A stretch of 64,000 nt of DNA. Origin: a virus. Below the pieces are notes generated by a model, which made no database searches, was not told where the DNA came from, and saw only the letters and a program-made list of their open reading frames with translations. Position numbers and translations under genes: made by a program. Shown piece after piece: positions 20,791-48,138 of the stretch. Location: UHGV virus genome UHGV-0125821, one strand, 5' to 3'. Each line of letters opens with the position of its first letter. Position 1 is the stretch's first letter.

Positions 20791-20805
20791 ATGTTAGAAA
20801 ACTAA
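20791..20805. promoter_or_regulatory. Operator-like motif (reverse complement of TTAGTTTTCTAACAT)
   Basis: Exact 15-mer shared with sites at 31322, 48135 and 43237; 25 nt upstream of the 20830 start. Confidence 0.45.
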
Positions 20806-38068: not shown

Positions 38069-38341
38069 TTAAGGCTCACATTTCCAGATGGTATTCTGAA
38101 CACCCGAACCGGGCGCAAGATTAGGGTTAGCGTTCGCGCTATGCTGATATACTGCTTTAGACTTCCCATATTGCTGACAGGCTTTATCTGCGGTTTTTTG
38201 CAGGCTATCCAGGCCATACCAACCATCTGACTGTATGCTTACCTTTTCACCGTCGTTGTATTGCACCATTGCACACCCAGATATAGCCAGTATCGCGCCG
38301 ACAATAACGCTTTTCCATAAAACTCTATGCAACATATACAA
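38069..38341 (-). CDS. Small lipoprotein
   Basis: 90 aa; signal peptide with lipobox AISGC. Confidence 0.5.
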
Positions 38342-38380
38342 AAATCCCCTCTGTGAATTGAGGGGATTTTAGCATGGTGA

Positions 38381-39211
38381 TCAGATATCGGCCTTATTCG
38401 GAATTTTATCAGCCACCAGCGGCAATAAAGCCTTCGCCATTTCATGAACCAACATGGCATCAATGACGCCTAGCGTATGGCCCGGCTTAATCTTTAATGC
38501 GGCCTCAAGATAGCCTCTTTCCAGAGTGGTTTTTACGCTTTTCTTGGGCGATTGTTGGGAACTATCCGGAAAATCCGGATGGTTGCCAGCCAGTCTACGC
38601 AAAACGGCCTTAACAGCCTCAATACGGTCATCATCGCAATTTTCCAGCGTATCTATGCGGTCGAGCATGATGATTGCGTTATCAATATCAGGATTGCCGG
38701 TCCACTCATTACCGCGATTGGATTCGGCAGCATGGTTGCCGCGTACTGGTTGATTCTCGGCTTTACCCTGTCTGTCGTCGCTGCATGAATGCCCTTCCAG
38801 CCAGGCCAATGCTTGTCGCATGAAATACGCAATATGTTTGCCGTGGTAATCGTCTTCATCGATGTGAAAAGCGATACTGCGGATGTATTCAATTGCGTTT
38901 TCAATGGCCTCCGGCGTTATCGGCGCTGGCGGTGCGGTATAAAACTTCGTCCCCAACGGCAACAACTTCATCGCTTTTTCTCCCTTAATGATGCGATAAG
39001 TTGATTTCCCGCCAAGGTCTACCGTCCCATCCATAACAAGGCCATGTTGCTTCTCTGAAACTTCACCAATAGGCTCTGCTTCCAGCGATGTCAGCGCAAT
39101 CCGCGCCAGTTCTTCCGCTTCTTCTGCTGGCAGTACAACGTTGCTACCAGGTCCGTATGTTTCGCGCCACTGCTTGATTGTCAGTAGTCGCTCTTTGGTT
39201 ATAGTGGTCAT
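38381..39211 (-). CDS. Hypothetical protein
   Basis: 276 aa; 4-nt overlap with the upstream gene. Confidence 0.5.
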   Translation of the reverse strand: MTTITKERLLTIKQWRETYGPGSNVVLPAEEAEELARIALTSLEAEPIGEVSEKQHGLVMDGTVDLGGKSTYRIIKGEKAMKLLPLGTKFYTAPPAPITPEAIENAIEYIRSIAFHIDEDDYHGKHIAYFMRQALAWLEGHSCSDDRQGKAENQPVRGNHAAESNRGNEWTGNPDIDNAIIMLDRIDTLENCDDDRIEAVKAVLRRLAGNHPDFPDSSQQSPKKSVKTTLERGYLEAALKIKPGHTLGVIDAMLVHEMAKALLPLVADKIPNKADI

Positions 39212-39489
39212 TTGTTAACCCTCAAAACTTTATGCCCGGGCGCAAAAGCACGCGTTTTGTCTTTGCTTATTCGCCAGCCATCCTTGCGCGCCTCTTTTGC
39301 ACAGCCAGCCCATGACGTACCTATATACTCACCGAAGTCTGGCACTGGATATACACCTTCCGTGCACTGACGGCAGTCACAATAGAGATGCATGGTGTAA
39401 CTTGCAGCGATAGCCATATCACTCTCCTTTAGTACGCAAGTGGTTTTTCCAGCGGTTTTGCGCCGCGCTGGGCTTTTTGCAAAAACCAC
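39208..39489 (-). CDS. Hypothetical Cys-rich small protein (start uncertain)
   Basis: YCDCRQCTEG and WAGC cysteines suggest a zinc-binding fold. Confidence 0.35.
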   Translation of the reverse strand: MVFAKSPARRKTAGKTTCVLKESDMAIAASYTMHLYCDCRQCTEGVYPVPDFGEYIGTSWAGCAKEARKDGWRISKDKTRAFAPGHKVLRVNK

Positions 39490-39593: not shown

Positions 39594-40346
39594 TTACGGT
39601 TTTTCATCGTTTTGCTCTCCTGCGTCTCCTTTGATGCAAATGCCAGCGACGCATGGCACATTAACTTCCACGATGCGCACAGTTGGTTTGTACATCTCAA
39701 TCGCTGTCAGCCAGTCAGCGCCAGTCATGCGCTTTTCTGCATCGCCATTAGTCCACTTAACCGGTACACCAATAGCCTTCATCGCGATTTCTATTTCCCC
39801 GGCGATGGCGCTTTTTCCGCAACCAGTAAAACCAGAAACAACGACAAGAACTTCACCTTTGGCTGGTTTTATTTCCCGTGCTTCCAGTTCTGCAATGCGC
39901 TTCTCTGCGGCTTCCAGCTTCTCGCGCATATCGTCAACGTACTCGACCAGAGAACCGCCAGCAGGAATTTCGCACTCCTCGACCAGTTGGAAGTAGATAT
40001 CAGCTGCGGCCCGTGTGTTGCTATGCCTAGCGTCGCCCATCTCACCTTCACGAAGAGCATCGCGTTCGGCGGTAAGATTGGCTATTTTGCTGTCTTTGCC
40101 TTCCAGCTCAACACGCAGCTTCCCTACCGTTAGCGCAATATCCTCGTTCTCCTGATCGCGGCTTTTGATGTATTGCAGGTTTCTTTCCCGTTCATCCAAC
40201 AATGCCAGCGCGATATCTGGCGAAAAGTGCTTCATAAAATCGTTAAGCGCATTAATTCGCTGATCGAAAGGCATTACAGGTGCTTCACCAGCAATTTTTG
40301 TTTTTTCAGCGATTTCACGAAGCTTTTGATAATCAATCTTGCTCAC
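39594..40346 (-). CDS. Paralog-family early protein with C-terminal P-loop NTPase-like domain
   Basis: GTG start after AAGGAGG; N-terminus SKIDYQKLREIAEK shared with three paralogs; Walker A-like GFTGCGKS. Confidence 0.5.
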   Translation of the reverse strand: MSKIDYQKLREIAEKTKIAGEAPVMPFDQRINALNDFMKHFSPDIALALLDERERNLQYIKSRDQENEDIALTVGKLRVELEGKDSKIANLTAERDALREGEMGDARHSNTRAAADIYFQLVEECEIPAGGSLVEYVDDMREKLEAAEKRIAELEAREIKPAKGEVLVVVSGFTGCGKSAIAGEIEIAMKAIGVPVKWTNGDAEKRMTGADWLTAIEMYKPTVRIVEVNVPCVAGICIKGDAGEQNDEKP

Positions 40347-40987
40347 TGGTTGCCTCCTTTGCGAAGCTGCTCCGCACAATGCAGCAGGGCGTCCGTCGCT
40401 TCTTTCACCGTAACGATGTCGCCATCGTCCAGCCCGGCAACCGTCGCGTCCTTAACGAACACCGAGCAAAGGTCATTAAACGCCTGCGCACGTACTTCAG
40501 CCAGGAGAGCGTCGGTGACCGGAGTTTCAGGAATCCGTCTCCTCATCCGTTCTATTGCATGATTGAACCCGAAATCTTCAGCAAGAGATACGTCATCCAT
40601 ATTGTCATTGTCGTCCTCAATATCCCGTGGTTCTGGAATTGCAGACTTTATTACCGCATTCTCCGCTGCTAGCGCCGCGCACTTGGCCTCAAGAGCGGCA
40701 ACCACTTCCTGATGGTCTTTGTACTTAACGTATGAGCCGGAGATGTCATCACCTTCGGTGTTTAGCCATGCGTCATTGCAATTCACTGCGTAGGTTCTGA
40801 TGCTCATGCTGATGCTCTCCCGCCCCTGACAGACGCCAGGCCAGTCAATAAAGTATCCGCAATGCCTACCCTCAGACGTGCGCGCAGGATAAATGCCGTT
40901 ATGACCCGGCAAAATATATGCTACCCATTCATCTTGCGTTGCCTGTTTCGCCGCCTCGCGCAGTTCTTTATAGTTAATTTCGCTCAC
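40343..40987 (-). CDS. Paralog-family early protein (Ea22-like organisation)
   Basis: N-terminus MSEINYKELREAAKQ and C-terminus LRKGGNQ shared with paralogs; near-identical gene junction repeated at 40340, 40975 and 45860. Confidence 0.5.
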   Translation of the reverse strand: MSEINYKELREAAKQATQDEWVAYILPGHNGIYPARTSEGRHCGYFIDWPGVCQGRESISMSIRTYAVNCNDAWLNTEGDDISGSYVKYKDHQEVVAALEAKCAALAAENAVIKSAIPEPRDIEDDNDNMDDVSLAEDFGFNHAIERMRRRIPETPVTDALLAEVRAQAFNDLCSVFVKDATVAGLDDGDIVTVKEATDALLHCAEQLRKGGNQ

Positions 40988-41223
40988 TGGTTGCCTCCTT
41001 TACGGATCTGCGCTGCGATGCGCGAAAAAAAAGACTCCCGCGTATGACTGTTAAGAGCTGGCGCGAACGCTGCGTTAAGAACAGCAGCATCACAGCCGTC
41101 ATCAATATAGAGCGCAATTTTTTTCTCCAGGCGCGCTTTGGCTTCCTGCAACTGCATACCCCGGCACGCACGCGGGATATAATCAGCAATTTGAGCGATA
41201 GCCTTTTCGTTCTGTTTAAACAT
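40984..41223 (-). CDS. Short paralog-family protein sharing the C-terminal IRKGGNQ module
   Basis: 79-aa ORF ending with the same motif and junction as its neighbours. Confidence 0.4.
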   Translation of the reverse strand: MFKQNEKAIAQIADYIPRACRGMQLQEAKARLEKKIALYIDDGCDAAVLNAAFAPALNSHTRESFFSRIAAQIRKGGNQ

Positions 41224-41419
41224 GCTTCACCTCGATAGGCTTGATGGTGTCTAACAGCAGTCGACGGCGCGTATTTTCTGCAAAGTGGCGGCGTCCGGTA
41301 TCTTTGTGGTAAAACTCATTTTTGCCGACGACCCACATCCGCTCTGTTTGGTGCAGTTTTTTTACCTGCGGACCGTCTTTGGTGATCACGGTGCCGGTAT
41401 GGGTTTTTACGATTGTCAT
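41216..41419 (-). CDS. Hypothetical small protein
   Basis: 67-aa ORF overlapping neighbours. Confidence 0.35.
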   Translation of the reverse strand: MTIVKTHTGTVITKDGPQVKKLHQTERMWVVGKNEFYHKDTGRRHFAENTRRRLLLDTIKPIEVKHV

Positions 41420-41502
41420 GCCACTACCTCTTCGAACAGATGAACGAGACAGGCCGATGCTCGTCCACCTAAAAAGCTGACGACTTGATGCATACTCACG
41501 GT

Positions 41503-42195
41503 TTATTCCTGAATGCGCTTAAACTCAATTACCCATACCCACGGGTTAGATAGCCAGTTATCCTGCCCGTAAATACTGCGCCAGATATCACCAAAACCAA
41601 CGCGATAAACAGCTTCCGGCGGTGTAATTTTGTACATCGCCGGAGATGCGCCTTCTGCTTTAGCATCTGCCTCGCTCATATCACGCAGCCGTTCCACACG
41701 CACGTCGGTAATTTCCAGCAAAATGCGCGATGCCCAGCGCGGCATGTGAATTGATGGACACCACCCGCCATCAAATTTTTCATTCACAGTGTGAGGTTTC
41801 CAGTCGGCATCATCGGGTATCGACCACAAGCCGTAATCACCCGGCTTTTGCTCACAACTGGCCCGATAAATCCTTGCTGCGTTCTTCTCATCGCCACGAC
41901 AAAGGTTGTCGTTCCAGTCCACACTGCAACCATCCTCATTGCCTAATATCGCCCACGCCTCACGGACCCATATGCGATCACCAACGTTACCGAACGGGCA
42001 TAAACCATGTTCAGGTGCATCCATAACGTGGGTATAGACACCATTGCGTTTCTTTGTCGGTTTACGGATAACCAGGCAGTTATCGGCCCTGACATTTTTT
42101 ACAGGTCGGCGAGTCTGCGTCTTCCTTCCTTCGAGGATGGCCCTGACCATCTCATCGTTAAAAATCATCCCGCGTTCTTTCATTTTTTGATCCAC
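41503..42195 (-). CDS. ASCH-like domain phage protein (tentative)
   Basis: N-terminal MIFNDEMVRAILEGRKTQTRR and GDRIWVREAW resemble ASCH-fold prophage proteins. Confidence 0.4.
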   Translation of the reverse strand: MDQKMKERGMIFNDEMVRAILEGRKTQTRRPVKNVRADNCLVIRKPTKKRNGVYTHVMDAPEHGLCPFGNVGDRIWVREAWAILGNEDGCSVDWNDNLCRGDEKNAARIYRASCEQKPGDYGLWSIPDDADWKPHTVNEKFDGGWCPSIHMPRWASRILLEITDVRVERLRDMSEADAKAEGASPAMYKITPPEAVYRVGFGDIWRSIYGQDNWLSNPWVWVIEFKRIQE

Positions 42196-42199
42196 CTCA

Positions 42200-43195
42200 T
42201 CAGTTATTGAAAGTGATCACTCCGCGCTCGATGGCGAAGTCAAAAAGCTGGTTAGCGGCTACGTAAAGGCGTATGCCATGTGCTTTTTCCCATGCCCGAA
42301 CATCGTTTTCTGCGCTTCTGGCGCAGTCATCGCAAAGAGGAACAGCCCAGCGGTCGTGTTCGTTTAACGAGCGGGCGCGGTACATGAACGGGTGGTTAAC
42401 TTTGCCACCGCATCCGATGCACGGACGAGAAACCACAAACCGGAGATAAGCCGGGCTTTTACCGAGGACCGCTTTTGGTCGGCGCATATAAAGCAGACCG
42501 GAATCCTCATCTACAGACAGGTTGACGATCTGCTCTGCGGTTATGTCCACCAGCTCACGGGTGCTGTGCTCCCAGGTGATATCTGATTCTTTCAGCGTAC
42601 CGGTAGGGATTTCAGTTTTTGGCTGACAAAATGCAATGCGACCGGCTTCATCTGGCAGCTCATCTTTCAGATTCCGGCGAATGGCCCAAAAAGTGAGTTC
42701 AACCATGCTCAGATCGCGTTCTGGCGGTAGTTTTAACTCGCTCGCAGCCCAGTTCATAACCCAGTTGGCACGATTCAGGGATAACTGGTCGTCCAGCTTG
42801 CTGTACCCCTTCATCATGTATTCCGCATCATGCTTCCAGCACAGGCGAACGGCAGAGCCGTTATAGAAATGGGTGGTTAGCTGGTGGCTGCAATCGCGCT
42901 TATCGTGCGCCTGGCAATCGTGGATATTGGAACTTACCCAATGAACAAGCGAATCTTCACCGCCCAACGCGTTAAATACGCGCTCGCTTTGAAAAAACGG
43001 TTTCAGAGACTGGTTGGCAACCAGCGAATAATTCAGATCCACTACGCCATCTGGCGTGTTTTCAGCCTGTTCACGCGGAAGTGGGGAGATAATGAAACGG
43101 CGACCTGCGCCAATGTAGTTGCTGGTGGGCTTGTCTACCGGAAAGACAGCCACACCAGCTCCGTTTACGAAATGAGGTGTGATTATTGCACTCAT
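42200..43195 (-). CDS. Hypothetical protein with C-terminal Cys-rich zinc-binding-like motif
   Basis: 331 aa; CIGCGG...PLCDDC near the C-terminus; first gene after the bivalent operator. Confidence 0.5.
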   Translation of the reverse strand: MSAIITPHFVNGAGVAVFPVDKPTSNYIGAGRRFIISPLPREQAENTPDGVVDLNYSLVANQSLKPFFQSERVFNALGGEDSLVHWVSSNIHDCQAHDKRDCSHQLTTHFYNGSAVRLCWKHDAEYMMKGYSKLDDQLSLNRANWVMNWAASELKLPPERDLSMVELTFWAIRRNLKDELPDEAGRIAFCQPKTEIPTGTLKESDITWEHSTRELVDITAEQIVNLSVDEDSGLLYMRRPKAVLGKSPAYLRFVVSRPCIGCGGKVNHPFMYRARSLNEHDRWAVPLCDDCARSAENDVRAWEKAHGIRLYVAANQLFDFAIERGVITFNN

Positions 43196-43236
43196 AATGT
43201 ATACCGACTCTGTTTTGTTCCGAGCGGTAAAATAAT

Positions 43237-43270
43237 ATGTTAGAAAACTAAAATCAATGTTCTAACACAT
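43237..43270. promoter_or_regulatory. Bivalent operator-like site (GTTAGA-N16-TCTAAC)
   Basis: ATGTTAGAAAACTAAAATCAATGTTCTAACACAT, 25-60 nt upstream of the 42200-43195 start. Confidence 0.5.
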
Positions 43271-43292
43271 TTTGAGTGCGTAAATGATTTGA

Positions 43293-43985
43293 TCAGACTT
43301 TAAGCTGCCCTCCCTTCACCTGCATTAGCGTCAGATTTCCACAAAAAACCGCGCCCGTGTCTATGTAGTGCTGATTCCAGTATGCTTTTGGTCTTCGTAC
43401 CGGTGTGTGCCCAAAGATAAAGCGATCTGCGCCTGTGATTTCTCCACCAATGCCATCTATCGAATCACCGACGCGACTGCGCGACCAGACAACATCAAAA
43501 AGCGATACATCCTTACCGAACTGGTACTCTCCACCTGGATAGTCGGCATGGGCTATAACGATAGTTTCATGTCCGGTGTTCAACTCAATGATATATGGCA
43601 GACGCTTTACCAGCTCCACCAGCGCCTTGGCTAATATTTCCTGATCAGTGTCCAGCATGAAGAACCATTGTCCGCCATTCATTAGCCAGTTATTCACGTT
43701 GCCATCTGGACTTAACGCATCAAGCATCAACCGCTCATGGTTCCCCATTACTGCCCTGAACCAGGGCATCTGCAATAGTTCCAGACATTCGACATTTTCA
43801 GTACCGCGATCGATAAGGTCGCCAACCGATATCAGTAAATCCTGCGCCGGGTCAAAATCCACACGATGGAGTTCGGACATCAGTCTGGTGTAGCAACCAT
43901 GCAGATCACCAACTACCCATATGTTTCTGTAGCCAGAACCATCAATACGGCTATATAAATTCACTTCATGCATAGCTTGGATCAT
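43293..43985 (-). CDS. Ser/Thr protein phosphatase, lambda-PPase-like metallophosphoesterase
   Basis: Motifs VVGDLHG, GDLIDRG and GNHE; start at 43985 gives an ATGA overlap with the upstream stop. Confidence 0.85.
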
Positions 43986-44293
43986 GCGGCAACCTTCTCC
44001 CGCAGCCAGATACAAACTGGACCATCTTCAGTGTCATGAATAGAGCCAACAAACCAGCCTTCACCCTCTGGTCGCTCCGGTTCCCAGGCGGCAATATCGG
44101 GACCAGCTGCGTCCATATCAAAATCATCTTCATCCATACTGCGAATAGTCCACTGAAGATTATTTTCCTTCATCCAGGCGTCAAATTCCTCAGTGGAAAT
44201 ATATTCACGACCTGCGCAAAACTTCTCATACTCCGGATGTGTCCAGCAGCCATATTCATCACGTTCTACCGGCATTTCTTTAATTGTGTTCAC
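43982..44293 (-). CDS. Hypothetical acidic protein
   Basis: 103 aa. Confidence 0.45.
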
Positions 44294-44514
44294 TCTTCAT
44301 CCTCCAAATCAGCAACCGCGTCCATCACATCAGAACCGCGAATAACTTCAAAAGCGCGGCAGGCCATTTGAAATACCCGTTGCTCTTGCGGGTGCGGAGA
44401 CTCCCAATATTTGAAGCCTGGGCGATGCGTGTACCCCATCATGGAATAAAAATCGCCAGCAAGTTCAATCGCGGCATCAACAAGTTCGCGATTTGTCATC
44501 GTCTGTTCTGTCAT
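44290..44514 (-). CDS. Hypothetical small protein
   Basis: 74 aa; 4-nt overlaps. Confidence 0.4.
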   Translation of the reverse strand: MTEQTMTNRELVDAAIELAGDFYSMMGYTHRPGFKYWESPHPQEQRVFQMACRAFEVIRGSDVMDAVADLEDEE

Positions 44515-44801
44515 TTGGTTTTCTCCTGTCTGAACATCACTATCATCAGGTCGCCTTTTGTCGCTATTCTGGCTGTTGTGCCTGGTTCAATGCTGCCAAG
44601 TTCAAATGCGTCATAGAACGCTTCTAATGCCTTCTGGCGTAGTTCCTGTTTGCGCCGTTTTTTCCACTGTTTCAGGAAAATGGAACCCAGCCATCGCCAT
44701 GTACGGGACATGATGTAAAGCCAACCGAGAAGTGCCAGACCGGAATTTAGGAGCGTATCGATCGTTATTGTCGTGTCGATATTCATTGGATTCTGCCTCA
44801 T
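44511..44801 (-). CDS. Hypothetical small membrane protein
   Basis: 96 aa with one hydrophobic helix. Confidence 0.4.
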   Translation of the reverse strand: MRQNPMNIDTTITIDTLLNSGLALLGWLYIMSRTWRWLGSIFLKQWKKRRKQELRQKALEAFYDAFELGSIEPGTTARIATKGDLMIVMFRQEKTK

Positions 44802-44877
44802 CTTTTTTCATCGTATCCCCCTCCCATGCGGGGCGACGGTGCGCCCCGTTAAAATTCAAAGTGATCAAATTCGTCAT

Positions 44878-45201
44878 TCATTTTCTTAAGTCCTCTTCCC
44901 GGATAACGTTGTTGCACGCATCCACACACTCGTCGCAGATGAAAACGTCTTCCCCGGCAATTAACTTTTTGACGGCGTGCTGTGGTTTATTGCAGAAGCT
45001 GCAATAAAGCGTTCGCCTGACTGATACGGATGGTGCGCCAGATGTCAGCCGCGCGATGTCGTTCTTGCGACGCAATATCACACGGCTGCACTCGACCAGC
45101 ATCTCCGGGGATATCTTCTCCTCCGTAGCGAGCGTTTCTAATCGTTCGAGTATGTGGAAGGCTTTTTCCTGGGTAATTGCAGAATGCGATGTGGTCATCA
45201 T
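44878..45201 (-). CDS. Small protein with ClpX-type N-terminal zinc-binding-domain-like C4 module
   Basis: [39 protein letters not shown] parallels the ClpX N-domain ([40 protein letters not shown]); no AAA+ module. Confidence 0.6.
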
Positions 45202-45866
45202 CTTTTCCCTTCAAAGTTCGGGCGCAGGCAGGATTGTCCTTTACGAAGCAGGGCTGCGAACCTGTCAGCCGCATCCGCGCAAGCAGAAGCAACGGAATCA
45301 AAAAATGGATCATCTCCGGTATCGCGCATCGTCAAAGCGAATGCCTCCAATCCCTGAGCCTGTATTTCAACAAGGTAAGCTTCAGATGTAGTGCTTTTCG
45401 CCTCGCCTAATTTGTTATGAGCTATGTTCGCTACACATGCGATGTCTATATCTGGATGATTAATTGGGAGATGGCTAAGAATTTCCTCAAGTGCTGCTTT
45501 TTTGTTTTGGCATTCCGCCACCAGCGCCCCGCAATTGCTTTCCAGCTCTGCAATACACTTTTTAGCGGCTTCCAGCTCAACACGCAGATTCTCAAGCGTT
45601 AGAGCCATCTCCACGTTCTCGTCCAGCAGTTCAATCACATCAGGATCGCTATCATCAACTACTGTTATGCGCGATTTTTTGTAATGCTCGTCAGCATAAG
45701 TTCGTCCAGTTTTGAAGCATCCGTCATCCTCCATGCCAGAACAGGCATAAACAACATGTGATCCAGATATGCGCTGCATTGACATTTCCTCGCCACAAAC
45801 AGAGCATTTAGGCGCTGGTTTCGGTGAAAAACGTTCACGTAACGTCTGATAATAAAGCTCGCTCAC
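45198..45866 (-). CDS. Paralog-family early protein (Cys-rich variant)
   Basis: N-terminus [13 protein letters not shown]; shares the conserved upstream junction. Confidence 0.5.
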
Positions 45867-46372
45867 TGGATGACTCCTTTACGAAGCTGTTCGGCGATAT
45901 CTTCGAGAACGCCATCAGAGAATGAGCGATCAAAATCGCCTTCCGGCGCATTAGCCATAAACTCAGTAGAGGTAAGAATCATCCGGGCAATATCCGCGGC
46001 GTTCTTCGCAGTATCATCAATAAAACCAGCTTTCCAGGCAGCCAGCATTCTGTTCGCCACAAAGTAAGCGCCCTCCTTGCGTGCTTCAGTCTTCACTTCA
46101 TCCAGGAAAGTGTCGGTCGCAGGAGTAGTTTTTTGTGGTGATAGGGCGATACGAATTGTTTCAAGAGCTGGATCTATTTCCACTGTTGGCACCTTGATAA
46201 AACCAAGCTGCACGCCATTCATAATGAACGTGCGGCGATCCTCACATATCGCCTTCAGTCTCGCATTCTCCGCAGCCAGCGCCGCGCGCTCTTTCTCAAG
46301 TCGGGAAATTTCCGTTACATACTCAGCGTTACGCTCTGCCAGTTGTGCGGGCGTTAAACCTTCAGACTTCAT
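45863..46372 (-). CDS. Paralog-family early protein (coiled-coil)
   Basis: C-terminus [11 protein letters not shown] and the shared junction. Confidence 0.5.
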   Translation of the reverse strand: MKSEGLTPAQLAERNAEYVTEISRLEKERAALAAENARLKAICEDRRTFIMNGVQLGFIKVPTVEIDPALETIRIALSPQKTTPATDTFLDEVKTEARKEGAYFVANRMLAAWKAGFIDDTAKNAADIARMILTSTEFMANAPEGDFDRSFSDGVLEDIAEQLRKGVIQ

Positions 46373-46679: not shown

Positions 46680-47314
46680 GCAGAACTCCTTCTAACCAAA
46701 AGAACGCCATCTTCAGAAACAACGTTGCAGGACTTCAGGTAATTCATTGCCTCTTTCGGTAATGGATTCTTTGGATCGGCGTTTGCCAGGGATTTCGATA
46801 ACCTCATGATAAATTTGATCATTACCTTCTGGCGGAGCTTGTGCTCATGAGATAAAGAAAGGTAATAGGAAATGGTATGGGCTAAACGCTCACGAAGCTG
46901 TTCTGTGCCGTGATATACAGCAGCGATATCACGCAGTGCATTGACCAGTTCCCGGTAAATATGTGGAGCAACCTGGCATTCAATGTTGGTTGGTGACTCA
47001 TAAATTACAGTCAGCCCCAGCTTTTCAGCCAGCGCGTGCTCTGCACGAGCACCAACCGATTCTTCCCATTGATTGAGCAAATAGATCGCATCAGCAGAAC
47101 GCACCATTGCCAGGCAAATATCCATGTATTCACTCTGGCAAAGGCCACCAGGTAACACCGCTGGATTCAGAACGATATGCCCTTCAGCCATCAGCTCGCT
47201 CGCTTTCGCATTAAACGCCGCACGGTTGTAATCTGGATAACCAGTCATCGGCCCCGCGATGTAAATTTTCAAAACACGTTTCACCATCAAAATTTCCCCA
47301 AAATCGTGACGCAA
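46676..47314 (-). CDS. DUF4406-like (nucleoside 2-deoxyribosyltransferase-fold) protein with C-terminal extension
   Basis: KIYIAGPMTGYPDYNRAAF...HIVLNPA...DAIYLL fits the DUF4406 pattern; start may be the internal Met at about 47287. Confidence 0.5.
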   Translation of the reverse strand: MRHDFGEILMVKRVLKIYIAGPMTGYPDYNRAAFNAKASELMAEGHIVLNPAVLPGGLCQSEYMDICLAMVRSADAIYLLNQWEESVGARAEHALAEKLGLTVIYESPTNIECQVAPHIYRELVNALRDIAAVYHGTEQLRERLAHTISYYLSLSHEHKLRQKVMIKFIMRLSKSLANADPKNPLPKEAMNYLKSCNVVSEDGVLLVRRSSA

Positions 47315-47480
47315 AACATAAGCACTGCGAAAAGCTCAATACCAAGCTCAAGTAGCGCCAACGCCCCGAAAAACAACACATAGAACAGGCCAATCTCATT
47401 CACAGATGGCTGGTGGATCGCACTTAAAGCTATAAGCATCATGTCCTCCAAACAGTTATCAGGAATGATATTAATGTTTT

Positions 47481-47510
47481 GTGTTAGAAAATCAATTTTG
47501 AATATCTAAC
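47481..47510. promoter_or_regulatory. Bivalent operator-like site between divergent ref and the minus-strand early operon
   Basis: GTGTTAGAAAATCAATTTTGAATATCTAAC with 16-bp core spacing; P1 ref is C1-controlled. Confidence 0.5.
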
Positions 47511-47559: not shown

Positions 47560-48138
47560 ATGCAGAAACAGAGCTATTGGGAGAAACAGAGACAAAAAGC
47601 CATGCAAAAATTGGCTGACCCAGCCTGGCGAGAGGAACAAAGGGCAAAGCGCCTTCAACAAGCTCAACGCCAGCAGCAACGAGCGAGAGAAAAAGCCGCA
47701 TCGCCTGAATATCGGCAAAAGAGAATTGAAAAAGCAAAGCAATATGACCAGCGGAGAAAAGAGAAAACTGTATCCGCTCCGTCCAAAAAAACACGCACGT
47801 CACGCGGCCTGAAGGGCAGATCACTCACAGCCGATGAACGCCGGATACAGACCGCTATCGGTACTCTCCCCTGCATTGCCTGCCATATTCACGGGCAACA
47901 TAGCCCAGTGGTATCCCTGCACCATATCTTCGGGAGAACGGCAGAGAACGCGCATAAATATGTCCTCCCTTTGTGTAAATGGCACCACCAGTACGCAGCG
48001 CCAGCCGAGGTCCGAGAACAATATCCCTGGCTGGTCCCTGTTCATGCTGACGGAAAAATAGGCGGAAAAGCAGATTTCATGCGGCACAATGCCGATGAAA
48101 TGACGTTATATCAGATGGCGATTGAATTGATAAATTAG
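47560..48138 (+). CDS. ref: Ref-like HNH endonuclease (recombination enhancement function)
   Basis: Basic disordered N-terminal region followed by Cys/His-rich core CIACHIHGQH...LCKWHHQ, as in P1 Ref; size close to P1 Ref. Confidence 0.8.
   Translation: MQKQSYWEKQRQKAMQKLADPAWREEQRAKRLQQAQRQQQRAREKAASPEYRQKRIEKAKQYDQRRKEKTVSAPSKKTRTSRGLKGRSLTADERRIQTAIGTLPCIACHIHGQHSPVVSLHHIFGRTAENAHKYVLPLCKWHHQYAAPAEVREQYPWLVPVHADGKIGGKADFMRHNADEMTLYQMAIELIN

Follow-up and report, generated by a model that had tools for sequence, protein, structure and literature searches.

Ea22-like gene cassettes in a D6-like phage-plasmid and the junction that probably serves their expression and their exchange

We analysed a 64,000-nucleotide (nt) stretch of the virus genome UHGV-0125821 (hereafter the window), in which the region at positions 39594-46372 carries an array of genes of the Ea22 (Ead) type known from phage lambda. 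The explanation that we consider, as a whole, quite likely is that these genes are Ea22 cassettes joined by a short conserved junction, that this junction combines a Shine-Dalgarno (SD) sequence with a GTGA stop/start overlap and serves expression, and that it doubles as a patch of homology for recombination. The membership of the genes in the family, the anatomy of the junction, the re-assortment of both of its flanks and the position of breakpoints at the junctions can all be read from sequence comparisons; homologous recombination would be the pathway of exchange, and a repressor would control the early expression of the genes.

In the proposed mechanism the junction would first of all be an expression device. 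The upstream codons AAA GGA GGC spell AAGGAGG for the next gene, whose weak GTG start, six bases past the SD, overlaps the upstream TGA. Each cassette would bring its own ribosome-binding site and would be coupled translationally to whatever gene precedes it, and a second junction type (ending in ..IKGE*) would operate likewise. Since this junction of about 20-85 nt lies around many unrelated cassettes in many phages, it would also be a patch of homology. Homologous recombination at the junctions and at intragenic coiled-coil segments would add, delete and swap cassettes and C-terminal domains.

Ea22-like genes and their junctions

The genes of the array that carry one or both of the conserved ends are the following (lengths in amino acids, aa; the Pfam family PF13935, Ead/Ea22, has a gathering score of 27 bits):

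45863-46372, minus strand: 169-aa gene; short N-terminus, coiled-coil segment and C-terminal domain ending in LRKGVIQ (phrog_14548/614/368/492)
45198-45866, minus strand: Ea22-like 222-aa gene; N-terminal motif, CxxC...C...C insert, coiled coil and C-terminal domain (PF13935, 48.5 bits; phrog_368)
40984-41223, minus strand: 79-aa gene, ends in IRKGGNQ and provides the SD for the next gene (phrog_1344)
40343-40987, minus strand: Ea22-like 214-aa gene, starts with VSEINYKELRE and ends in LRKGGNQ (PF13935, 88.2 bits)
39594-40346, minus strand: Ea22-like 250-aa gene, starts with VSKIDYQKLRE; long helices, then a small P-loop-like C-terminal domain (PF13935, 64.4 bits)

By their sequences, three of these genes (45198-45866, 40343-40987 and 39594-40346) are true members of the Ea22 family, with an N-terminal helix motif, a coiled-coil scaffold and differing C-terminal domains. 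All three carry the motif M-S-(E/K)-(I/L)-x-Y-x-x-L-R-E, and all three are already named 'ead/Ea22-like family protein' in the RefSeq annotation. The comparison with Ea22-type genes to which a preliminary description of this DNA had pointed gave these three PF13935 matches and an identity of 57% between residues 1-88 of the 250-aa protein and lambda Ea22 (E=1e-23). The three-part build of Ea22 recurs here, the N-terminal motif and the coiled coil aligning to lambda Ea22 and the C-terminal domains being unrelated among the copies. The 169-aa gene is without the Ea22 N-terminal motif and has no PF13935 match in Pfam. Its protein is related to the 214-aa protein across the coiled coil and the C-terminal domain (BLASTP, E=9e-5), with PHROG families in common. 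The 79-aa phrog_1344 protein, also without a PF13935 match, has an unrelated body and only its tail in common with the array.

The (L/I)RKG tail is found in four genes, at 45863-46372, 45198-45866 (as LRKG with an 11-residue extension), 40984-41223 and 40343-40987. At least four genes had been described as sharing both an N-terminal and a C-terminal module; that number stands for the tail, whereas the N-terminal motif is found in three genes and both modules in only two, so that five genes carry at least one module. The bodies of the genes are strongly divergent (19-32% identity in a multiple alignment), and the pairwise BLASTP alignment of the 222-aa and 214-aa proteins is limited to their first 11 residues. 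The likeness is therefore concentrated at the gene ends, as had been claimed.

The Ea22 family, its mosaicism and the annotation of these genes are already known. In lambda and the Shiga toxin (Stx) phages, Ea22 has a coiled coil between an N-terminal segment and a C-terminal domain that varies, and is mosaic, tetrameric and pro-lysogenic (PMC10834534, PMC7093339); the tetramer of these proteins has a dimeric C-terminal domain (PMC7093339, PMC10834534). By analogy, the array proteins may be tetrameric and pro-lysogenic as well. For the 250-aa protein, long helices at residues 43-100, 109-124 and 133-156 are predicted in a single-sequence model of low confidence (pLDDT 43), which is unusable as a full structure. 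Neither the 214-aa protein nor the C-terminal domain had a relative in sequence searches of the PDB. The 222-aa protein has a zinc-ribbon-like CxxC...C...C insert at residues ~20-50, immediately C-terminal to the N-terminal motif, and a similar insert (KCPICGEEMSI) is present in a relative in IMG/VR (L090).

The junctions of the window are these:

40982-41001, minus strand: junction J1, AAAGGAGGCAACCAGTGAGC, exact
40341-40360, minus strand: junction J2, AAAGGAGGCAACCAGTGAGC, exact
45861-45880, minus strand: junction J3, AAAGGAGTCATCCAGTGAGC, two mismatches to AAAGGAGGCAACCAGTGAGC; SD in K-G-V codons, with the GTGA stop/start overlap
39415-39430, minus strand: second junction type, intact, AAAGGAGAGTGATATG (..T-K-G-E*, AAGGAG, 6 nt, then the ATG of the next gene)
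39624-39644, minus strand: relic of the second junction type, GICIKGD replacing GIRIKGE* at the end of the 250-aa gene
45237-45248, minus strand: degenerate junction in the 222-aa gene, L-R-K-G encoded by CTTCGTAAAGGA (repeat D5)

The repeated, near-identical junction noted in the preliminary description is thus present in two exact copies and one copy with two mismatches. The 20-mer AAAGGAGGCAACCAGTGAGC had 0 occurrences in 100 shuffles of the window, which rules out a chance repeat as the origin of its copies. A family of 62-nt direct repeats (D1; 76-81% identity) has this 20-mer at its core. On the coding strand the junction reads CGN AAA GGA GGC AAC CAG TGA, and GTG AGC begins one base ahead of the stop. 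We called an SD where the sequence was complementary to the 3' end of 16S rRNA and lay 5-9 nt ahead of the start codon. J1 and J2 have AAGGAGG (in the K-G-G codons AAA GGA GGC) and, after a spacer of 6 nt, a GTG that forms GTGA with the overlapping TGA; J3 has AAGGAG with the same spacer and overlap. Read in this way, the junction is a predicted strong SD within the last codons of the upstream gene together with a stop/start overlap, and these two embedded elements would account for the near-identity of the copies.

The second junction type has the general form ATC AAA GGA GAG TGA nATG (..IKGE*). In its relic at 39624-39644 the stop codon is lost, and the open reading frame (ORF) is extended by 9 codons, giving a 14-nt overlap with the next start. 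In the degenerate junction at 45237-45248, CTTCGTAAAGGA is followed by an 11-codon read-through to a second SD-like sequence (GAAGGGA) and the ATGATG start of a gene for a ClpX-type zinc finger; in other phages this zinc-finger gene is preceded by an IRIKGE* junction.

Ribosome-binding site and terminal peptides

Two collections of Ea22-like genes bear on whether the junction is constrained as a ribosome-binding site or as a peptide. One comprises 57 unique 5' contexts, collected through protein homology alone, and the other 76 unique 3' ends, which were not chosen by their 3' ends. Among the 5' contexts, GGAGG is retained over upstream KGG, EGG, AGG, SGG and TGG, and the SD is also retained as K-E-G (a one-base shift) or in a non-coding upstream stretch. 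Phage D6 retains GGAGGCAACCAGTGAGC with the upstream ORF in another frame. Only four of the 57 contexts have a weak SD, and in all four ATG replaces GTG. Among the 3' ends, 43 of the 76 are KGE*, and every one of these 43 reads AAA GGA GAG, where GGA makes up just 15% of the Gly codons in this operon. In 41 of the 43, an ATG stands at a fixed +4 from the stop, and at least 12 different genes follow. In these sequences, conservation of the SD is independent of the upstream peptide, and the two collections and D6 each favour the ribosome-binding site as the main constraint.

The conserved terminal K/R-G-E ('+GE') of Ea22 has been described as 'of unknown significance' (PMC7093339). We identify this tail as the predicted ribosome-binding site of the next gene, which would explain the point left open in the literature; among the papers searched, none treats Ea22 together with Shine-Dalgarno sequences.

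Two observations in this material weigh on the other side. Codons 3-14 of the downstream gene and the A-A-Q-L-R codons ahead of the SD differ at synonymous positions and keep their amino acids, so that part of the junction is also under protein-level selection and the junction is a composite of terminal peptides and ribosome-binding site. In addition, lambda Ea22 retains ..IKGE* without any gene starting directly downstream, and its tail is either a relic or has a role at the protein level. Related phages have TGA-tATG-agcagg... at the position of the lambda tail, and we therefore read the latter as a probable relic.

Both observations would be expected if the termini were conserved mainly for protein function and the SD-like sequence were incidental. 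The N-terminal motif would then serve oligomerisation or partner binding, and the ..LRKGGNQ or ..IRIKGE end would be a peptide for recognition, which the ClpX-zinc-finger-like protein of the operon might, for example, use for docking or as a signal for degradation. The presence of a homologue of the ClpX zinc-binding domain in the same operon fits this idea, as that domain binds C-terminal adaptor peptides. However, the K-G-G/E codons are the ones without synonymous variation (the invariant AAA GGA GAG, despite the rarity of GGA), and the SD survives over EGG, AGG, SGG, TGG and K-E-G and in non-coding or other-frame stretches. Moreover, the tail is found on unrelated proteins such as the 79-aa phrog_1344 protein, and the residue preceding K varies (R, H or S). 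We regard conservation mainly for protein function as quite improbable, and retain the junction as a ribosome-binding site with a peptide component.

Re-assortment of cassettes and breakpoints

The exact 20-mer AAAGGAGGCAACCAGTGAGC occurs in more than 120 IMG/VR contigs, which is a lower bound. Among the matches listed, it joins at least 10 different upstream C-terminal domains to many different downstream Ea22-like genes and occasionally to unrelated ones. Junction-like sequences were detected in 1908 of 5426 complete E. coli genomes (~35%), at up to 8 places per genome; the IMG/VR and E. coli contexts are related by descent, and their counts overstate the number of independent events. Across 101 unique contexts, a shared island extends from about -20 to +65 (~85 nt), and identity falls to background outside it. 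Where two contexts share the left flank, the right flanks are unrelated in 279 of 347 pairs, and where they share the right flank, the left flanks are unrelated in 352 of 428 pairs. The second flank differs in 80-82% of the pairs with one flank in common.

We compared the window with four D6-like relatives, among them D6 and the plasmids L124 (NZ_CP122593), L125 and L126. L124 is without exactly the 214-aa cassette that lies between J2 and J1 in the window, and the one junction that it has in this place is a hybrid with a J1 left side and a J2 right side, where the homologies overlap by 56 nt. The similarity to D6 has one end within J2 (40357) and another directly beyond J3 (45888). L125 and L126 have a chimeric gene, the N-terminal part of the 214-aa gene and the C-terminal part of the 169-aa gene, joined in a coiled-coil repeat (D4):

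40646-40693, minus strand: coiled-coil DNA repeat D4, the crossover point of the chimeric genes of L125 and L126
46253-46300, minus strand: partner copy of D4, where the similarity between D6 and the window breaks

Further similarity ends coincide with the KGE junction (39413) and with its relic (39626-39637). Altogether, 14 of 24 breakpoint clusters fall in junction or coiled-coil repeats, which cover 9.8% of the region (binomial P ~6e-9, for breakpoint events and BLAST segment ends near repeats that are not fully independent). The re-assorted flanks, the one-cassette indel of L124 and the chimera of L125 and L126 support the earlier suggestion of a cassette family that diversifies by recombination.

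Two side observations concern the same comparison. The window has a 91-nt gap at 44787-44877, between the ClpX-zinc-finger gene and a DUF4752 gene, and L124 and L126 have an extra Ea22-like gene (~700-790 nt) exactly there; a fourth cassette therefore appears to have been lost, or never gained, by the window. The segment 40095-41436 is ~90% identical to lambdoid Stx2a-converting phages and to ArgO145. According to PMC3945230, the lambda-like and the P1/P2/Mu phage groups show no recent exchange.

Several points weigh against homologous recombination between coupled cassettes. Translational coupling itself is read from the arrangement of SD, stop and start, and may or may not operate as predicted. 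The identity between J1 and J2 is uninterrupted over 20 nt, inside a stretch of 62 nt with 76% identity, and the minimal pairing segment is given as 23-27 nt for Red-beta and 31-34 nt for RecA (PMC3945230), so that a crossover exactly there would be inefficient; longer identical stretches are found in other genomes, and phage Rad52-like recombinases act on short, diverged homologies (PMC3945230). An enrichment of breakpoints at gene borders would also be expected if joints arose at random and all but the functional ones were lost.

This last point leads to an alternative in which the exchange is illegitimate and independent of homology, selection sparing only the joints at gene borders, and the common junction reflects the descent of Ea22 start regions, with their ribosome-binding site, from one ancestor and is not a recombination substrate. 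Breakpoints outside the repeats, at ordinary gene borders or in repeat-free gene interiors (42198, 44798/44893, 41647 and 46334), speak for it, together with the shortness of the exact identity (just 20 nt) and the resemblance of the degenerate and relic junctions at 45237-45248 and 39624-39644 to imprecise events. The difference between L124 and the window, however, is the clean gain or loss of one cassette, with a hybrid junction at which 56 nt of homology overlap, the signature of a homologous crossover from one direct repeat to another. The intragenic coiled-coil repeats are likewise enriched in breakpoints, which selection at gene borders cannot explain, and both mosaics flanked by homology and relaxed recombination by Red/RecT/Erf have been documented in these phages (PMC3945230). 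Selection of border joints after illegitimate recombination is a partial alternative, and as a full account we consider it unlikely.

Tandem duplication within the plasmid lineage, followed by divergence with gene conversion keeping the junctions alike, is suggested by the three same-orientation direct repeats of the junction, by the two adjacent Ea22-like genes and by the repeats D2-D4 common to distant copies. The bodies of the genes are nevertheless unrelated or barely alignable, single cassettes have 90-100% nucleotide matches in other phages (the Stx2a/ArgO145 segment among them), the P-loop-like C-terminal domain is nearly unchanged across many prophages, and relatives differ by the presence or absence of whole cassettes and not by graded divergence. 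We rejected local tandem duplication because the bodies are unrelated and yet each has close copies elsewhere, and give the duplication scenario a very low probability. The word 'paralogous', which had been applied to the array, should thus not be taken to mean local duplication. Variable cassettes bounded by short conserved repeats might also recall programmed diversification, by shufflon-like site-specific recombination or a diversity-generating retroelement. The junction copies are, however, all direct and on one strand (0 inverted), and the variable parts are whole unrelated domains and not point-mutated repeats. With direct repeats alone and no invertase, integrase or reverse transcriptase in the operon, we rejected such a system, whose probability we put close to nil. 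Homologous recombination at the junctions and coiled-coil repeats is the reading that we carry forward.

Mini-domain, operon and related systems

The C-terminal part of the 250-aa protein is a small domain with a Walker-A-like motif:

39654-39857, minus strand: portable domain of about 68-72 residues (residues 164-231 of the 250-aa protein)
39810-39833, minus strand: Walker-A-like motif GFTGCGKS

The mini-domain is nearly unchanged in many prophages, where it usually ends in ..GIRIKGE*. Its predicted pattern is strand, G-x-T-G-x-G-K-S loop, helix, strand, helix, strand, so that in the predicted structure the Walker A consensus GxxxxGK[ST] is placed after a beta strand and before a helix. A search of cluster representatives at 50% identity gave 436 proteins at E<=0.001. 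The mini-domain is C-terminal in proteins of 118-623 aa, and N-terminal instead in some proteins of GC-rich genomes. Of 147 representatives, 145 have G..G.GK[ST], at identities as low as ~59%, and the longer motif G-x-T-G-x-G-K-S-A-x-A-G-E-I-E is invariant or nearly so in the same proportion. The motif is thus real, and selection clearly acts on it. An AlphaFold model built from 29 diverse sequences is confident (pLDDT 83.5).

The Walker-A-like segment reported earlier for this gene is thus conserved, but it has no significant match to a P-loop family profile. No Pfam family covers the mini-domain: the best match, to APS_kinase (E=0.01), scores 16.3 bits and stays below the cutoff of 21.1, with still weaker sub-threshold matches to AAA_16 and ParA, all over the first 40 residues. 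Foldseek found no match with the mini-domain model, and Pfam found no partner domain in ten distant mini-domain proteins. Membership in the P-loop nucleoside triphosphatases (NTPases) is not established, and we do not assign the mini-domain to them. The mini-domain is also found in long Ala/Pro-rich proteins of GC-rich genomes (P0203, P0206, P0225, P0227 and P0262), which have repeated 'ARQPVGEPV' and 'AAPPAQAVDL' segments and no Pfam domain. They may represent a second mosaic family of phage proteins built with this module.

Two broader proposals can be linked. The junction with its SD in the tail may be a general plug-and-play socket, through which any cassette with a ..KGG/KGE end and any with a GTGAGC start could be expressed at whatever place it arrives. 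The ~72-residue domain, as modelled, may be a natural minimal P-loop module, which may bind a nucleotide or phosphoryl ligand only when the Ea22 coiled coil assembles several copies. Taken jointly, the socket and the module are a tentative and rather doubtful pair. If true, the socket would let lambdoid prophages and P1/D6-type phage-plasmids draw on a common stock of early accessory effectors, many prophage proteins would have tail motifs that are footprints of ribosome-binding sites and not protein features, and the minimal P-loop module would be the first biochemical handle on the action of Ea22-type proteins.

The 6.8-kb region 39594-46372 is 100% identical to the plasmid ptetA (93.4 kb) of E. 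coli 19-5. Several other plasmids of ~90 kb are ~98% identical over 92% of the region, and phage D6 is 97% identical over 65%. The flanks of the region contain homologues of ref, icd, humD, hot and phd/doc, and we therefore assign the host element, by its gene content, to the D6-like, P1-related phage-plasmids and not to the integrated lambdoid prophages. The Ea22-bearing operon sits between ref and humD, unlike in lambdoid phages, where Ea22 is located in the exo-xis region under pL; the exo-xis position is a contextual trait that does not define the protein family.

All genes of the array are on the minus strand in one tightly packed operon of ~9 kb, in which 12 of 17 gene junctions overlap by 1-14 nt. 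Its content is that of the small accessory genes of the exo-xis, or early-left, type in lambdoid phages. As had been noted, the array is interleaved with a lambda-type phosphatase and a ClpX-zinc-finger gene. Downstream of the latter, in 5' to 3' order, are three small genes, the phosphatase gene, a DUF968 gene, an ASCH-like gene and a 67-aa gene. Further features of the operon and its surroundings are:

47482-47495, plus strand: operator-like site TGTTAGAAAATCAA in the divergent control region of ref and the operon
44878-45198, minus strand: ClpX C4 zinc-finger-like gene, interleaved in the array (PF06689, E=1e-17)
43293-43985, minus strand: Ser/Thr phosphatase gene of the lambda NinI/P1 Ppp type, interleaved in the array (PF00149; NinI-like phrog_246)
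41216-41419, minus strand: 67-aa gene (from the ORF list)
38341-38370, minus strand: strong terminator-like hairpin of 11 pairs, which probably ends the ~9-kb operon

The operator-like site in the control region is the only indication that the operon may be early, as had been described, and under the control of a repressor. Of its motif, TGTTAGAAAAYTAA (with TgTGTTAGAAAAnTAAt as extended consensus), the window has 18 copies where 1.2 would be expected, over a span of 8642-58469 (for example at 20792, 31324, 43238, 43254, 47482 and 48135), often between genes, and two pairs are inverted (43238/43254 and 58440/58456). P1 has dispersed C1 operators, and by analogy the TGTTAGAAAAYTAA sites are probably the operators of a D6-type C1 repressor. 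A sigma-70 scan called no promoter upstream of the operon, which counts against the explanation proposed here; TTGATT-N16-TAATAT at ~47480-47510, read by hand, has 8 of 12 matches.

Three neighbouring features deserve mention. The gene divergent from the mosaic operon (47560-48138, plus strand) encodes a Ref-family RecA-dependent nuclease (PF16786); P1 Ref stimulates recombination. The first gene of the operon is a small hydrophobic 54-aa ORF (47287-47451, minus strand) with its own SD (TGGAGGACATGATG), which is annotated in L124 and L126 (a 156-nt 'hypothetical protein') and absent from the annotation of the identical RefSeq record. At 38381-39211 (minus strand) the window has one continuous 276-aa ORF, which RefSeq cuts into a DUF551 coding sequence spanning the plasmid coordinate origin and a 'pseudo' fragment; this split looks like an annotation artefact of the point at which the record opens. 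In a scan of genome contigs with the Ea22 N-terminus, ~30 matches with identical statistics (56% identity) were found in unrelated phyla (L128-L163), in assemblies that include Streptomyces, Streptococcus, Prevotella and Marinifilum, many of them on contigs of ~48.4-48.5 kb or on tiny contigs of low coverage. They look like contamination of public genomes with phage-lambda control DNA.

Few early genes of lambda-type and Stx phages are still poorly understood; Ea22 is one of them, and it biases the decision between lysis and lysogeny. What the present locus adds is modest: a phage-plasmid host, a mechanism for the junction, an explanation of '+GE' and a Walker-A-like mini-domain. It shows the Ea22 family retained in several copies in P1/D6-type phage-plasmids and offers, in the invariant mini-domain, a concrete target for biochemistry. 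For annotation, it cautions against taking terminal motifs such as K-G-G or K-G-E as protein function. For phage evolution, it presents a conserved functional element that would also act as a linker for recombination across phage groups for which little exchange had been assumed.

The closest known counterparts of the cassettes are lambda Ea22 and the Ea22 variants V1-V3 of Stx phages (PF13935/IPR025153; PMC7093339, PMC10834534). The array shares with them the GTG-AGC start that overlaps the upstream stop, an N-terminal M-S-(E/K)-I-(N/D)-x-Q-x-L-R-E, a coiled coil with LLDERERN.QYIK.RDQENEDIALTVGKLRVELE, the mosaic build with variable C-terminal domains and the K-G-(E/G) end. It is unlike them in having several copies per element, two of them adjacent, in a P1/D6-type phage-plasmid, and its C-terminal domains differ from the solved domain of lambda Ea22. 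At the level of the operon, phage D6 (orf92 and orf100) and D6-like prophages (NC_050154) have the same backbone of DUF4406, helix-turn-helix, Ea22-like, ClpX zinc finger, DUF4752, phosphatase, DUF968 and further genes. The shared blocks are 94-98% identical, and RefSeq annotates two to four genes as 'ead/Ea22-like family protein'. The Ea22 cassettes differ in number and identity, with two in D6, three and the 169-aa gene in the window and four in NZ_CP058659, and the junctions and coiled-coil repeats mark the limits of what differs.

As a conserved island between unrelated flanks in which recent exchanges end, the junction resembles the linkers at module borders of lambdoid phages (the modular model of Botstein and Susskind; the 'HR traces', HR for homologous recombination, of De Paepe et al. 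2014, PMC3945230). Unlike those linkers, the island can be assigned a primary function (SD, start/stop overlap and terminal peptides) and is reused within one operon, and in contrast to the group separation described in PMC3945230, its cassettes are common to a P1-related element and to lambdoid Stx phages at ~90% identity. With general ATGA/GTGA translational coupling, in which the SD lies inside the upstream coding sequence, J1 and J2 share AAGGAGG, the 6-nt distance and a GTG overlapping TGA; what differs is that the SD codons have become a recognisable protein tail (..RKGGNQ, ..IKGE) on unrelated proteins. For the GFTGCGKS of the mini-domain, the system of comparison is the P-loop NTPases (Walker A GxxxxGK[ST], SIMIBI class).

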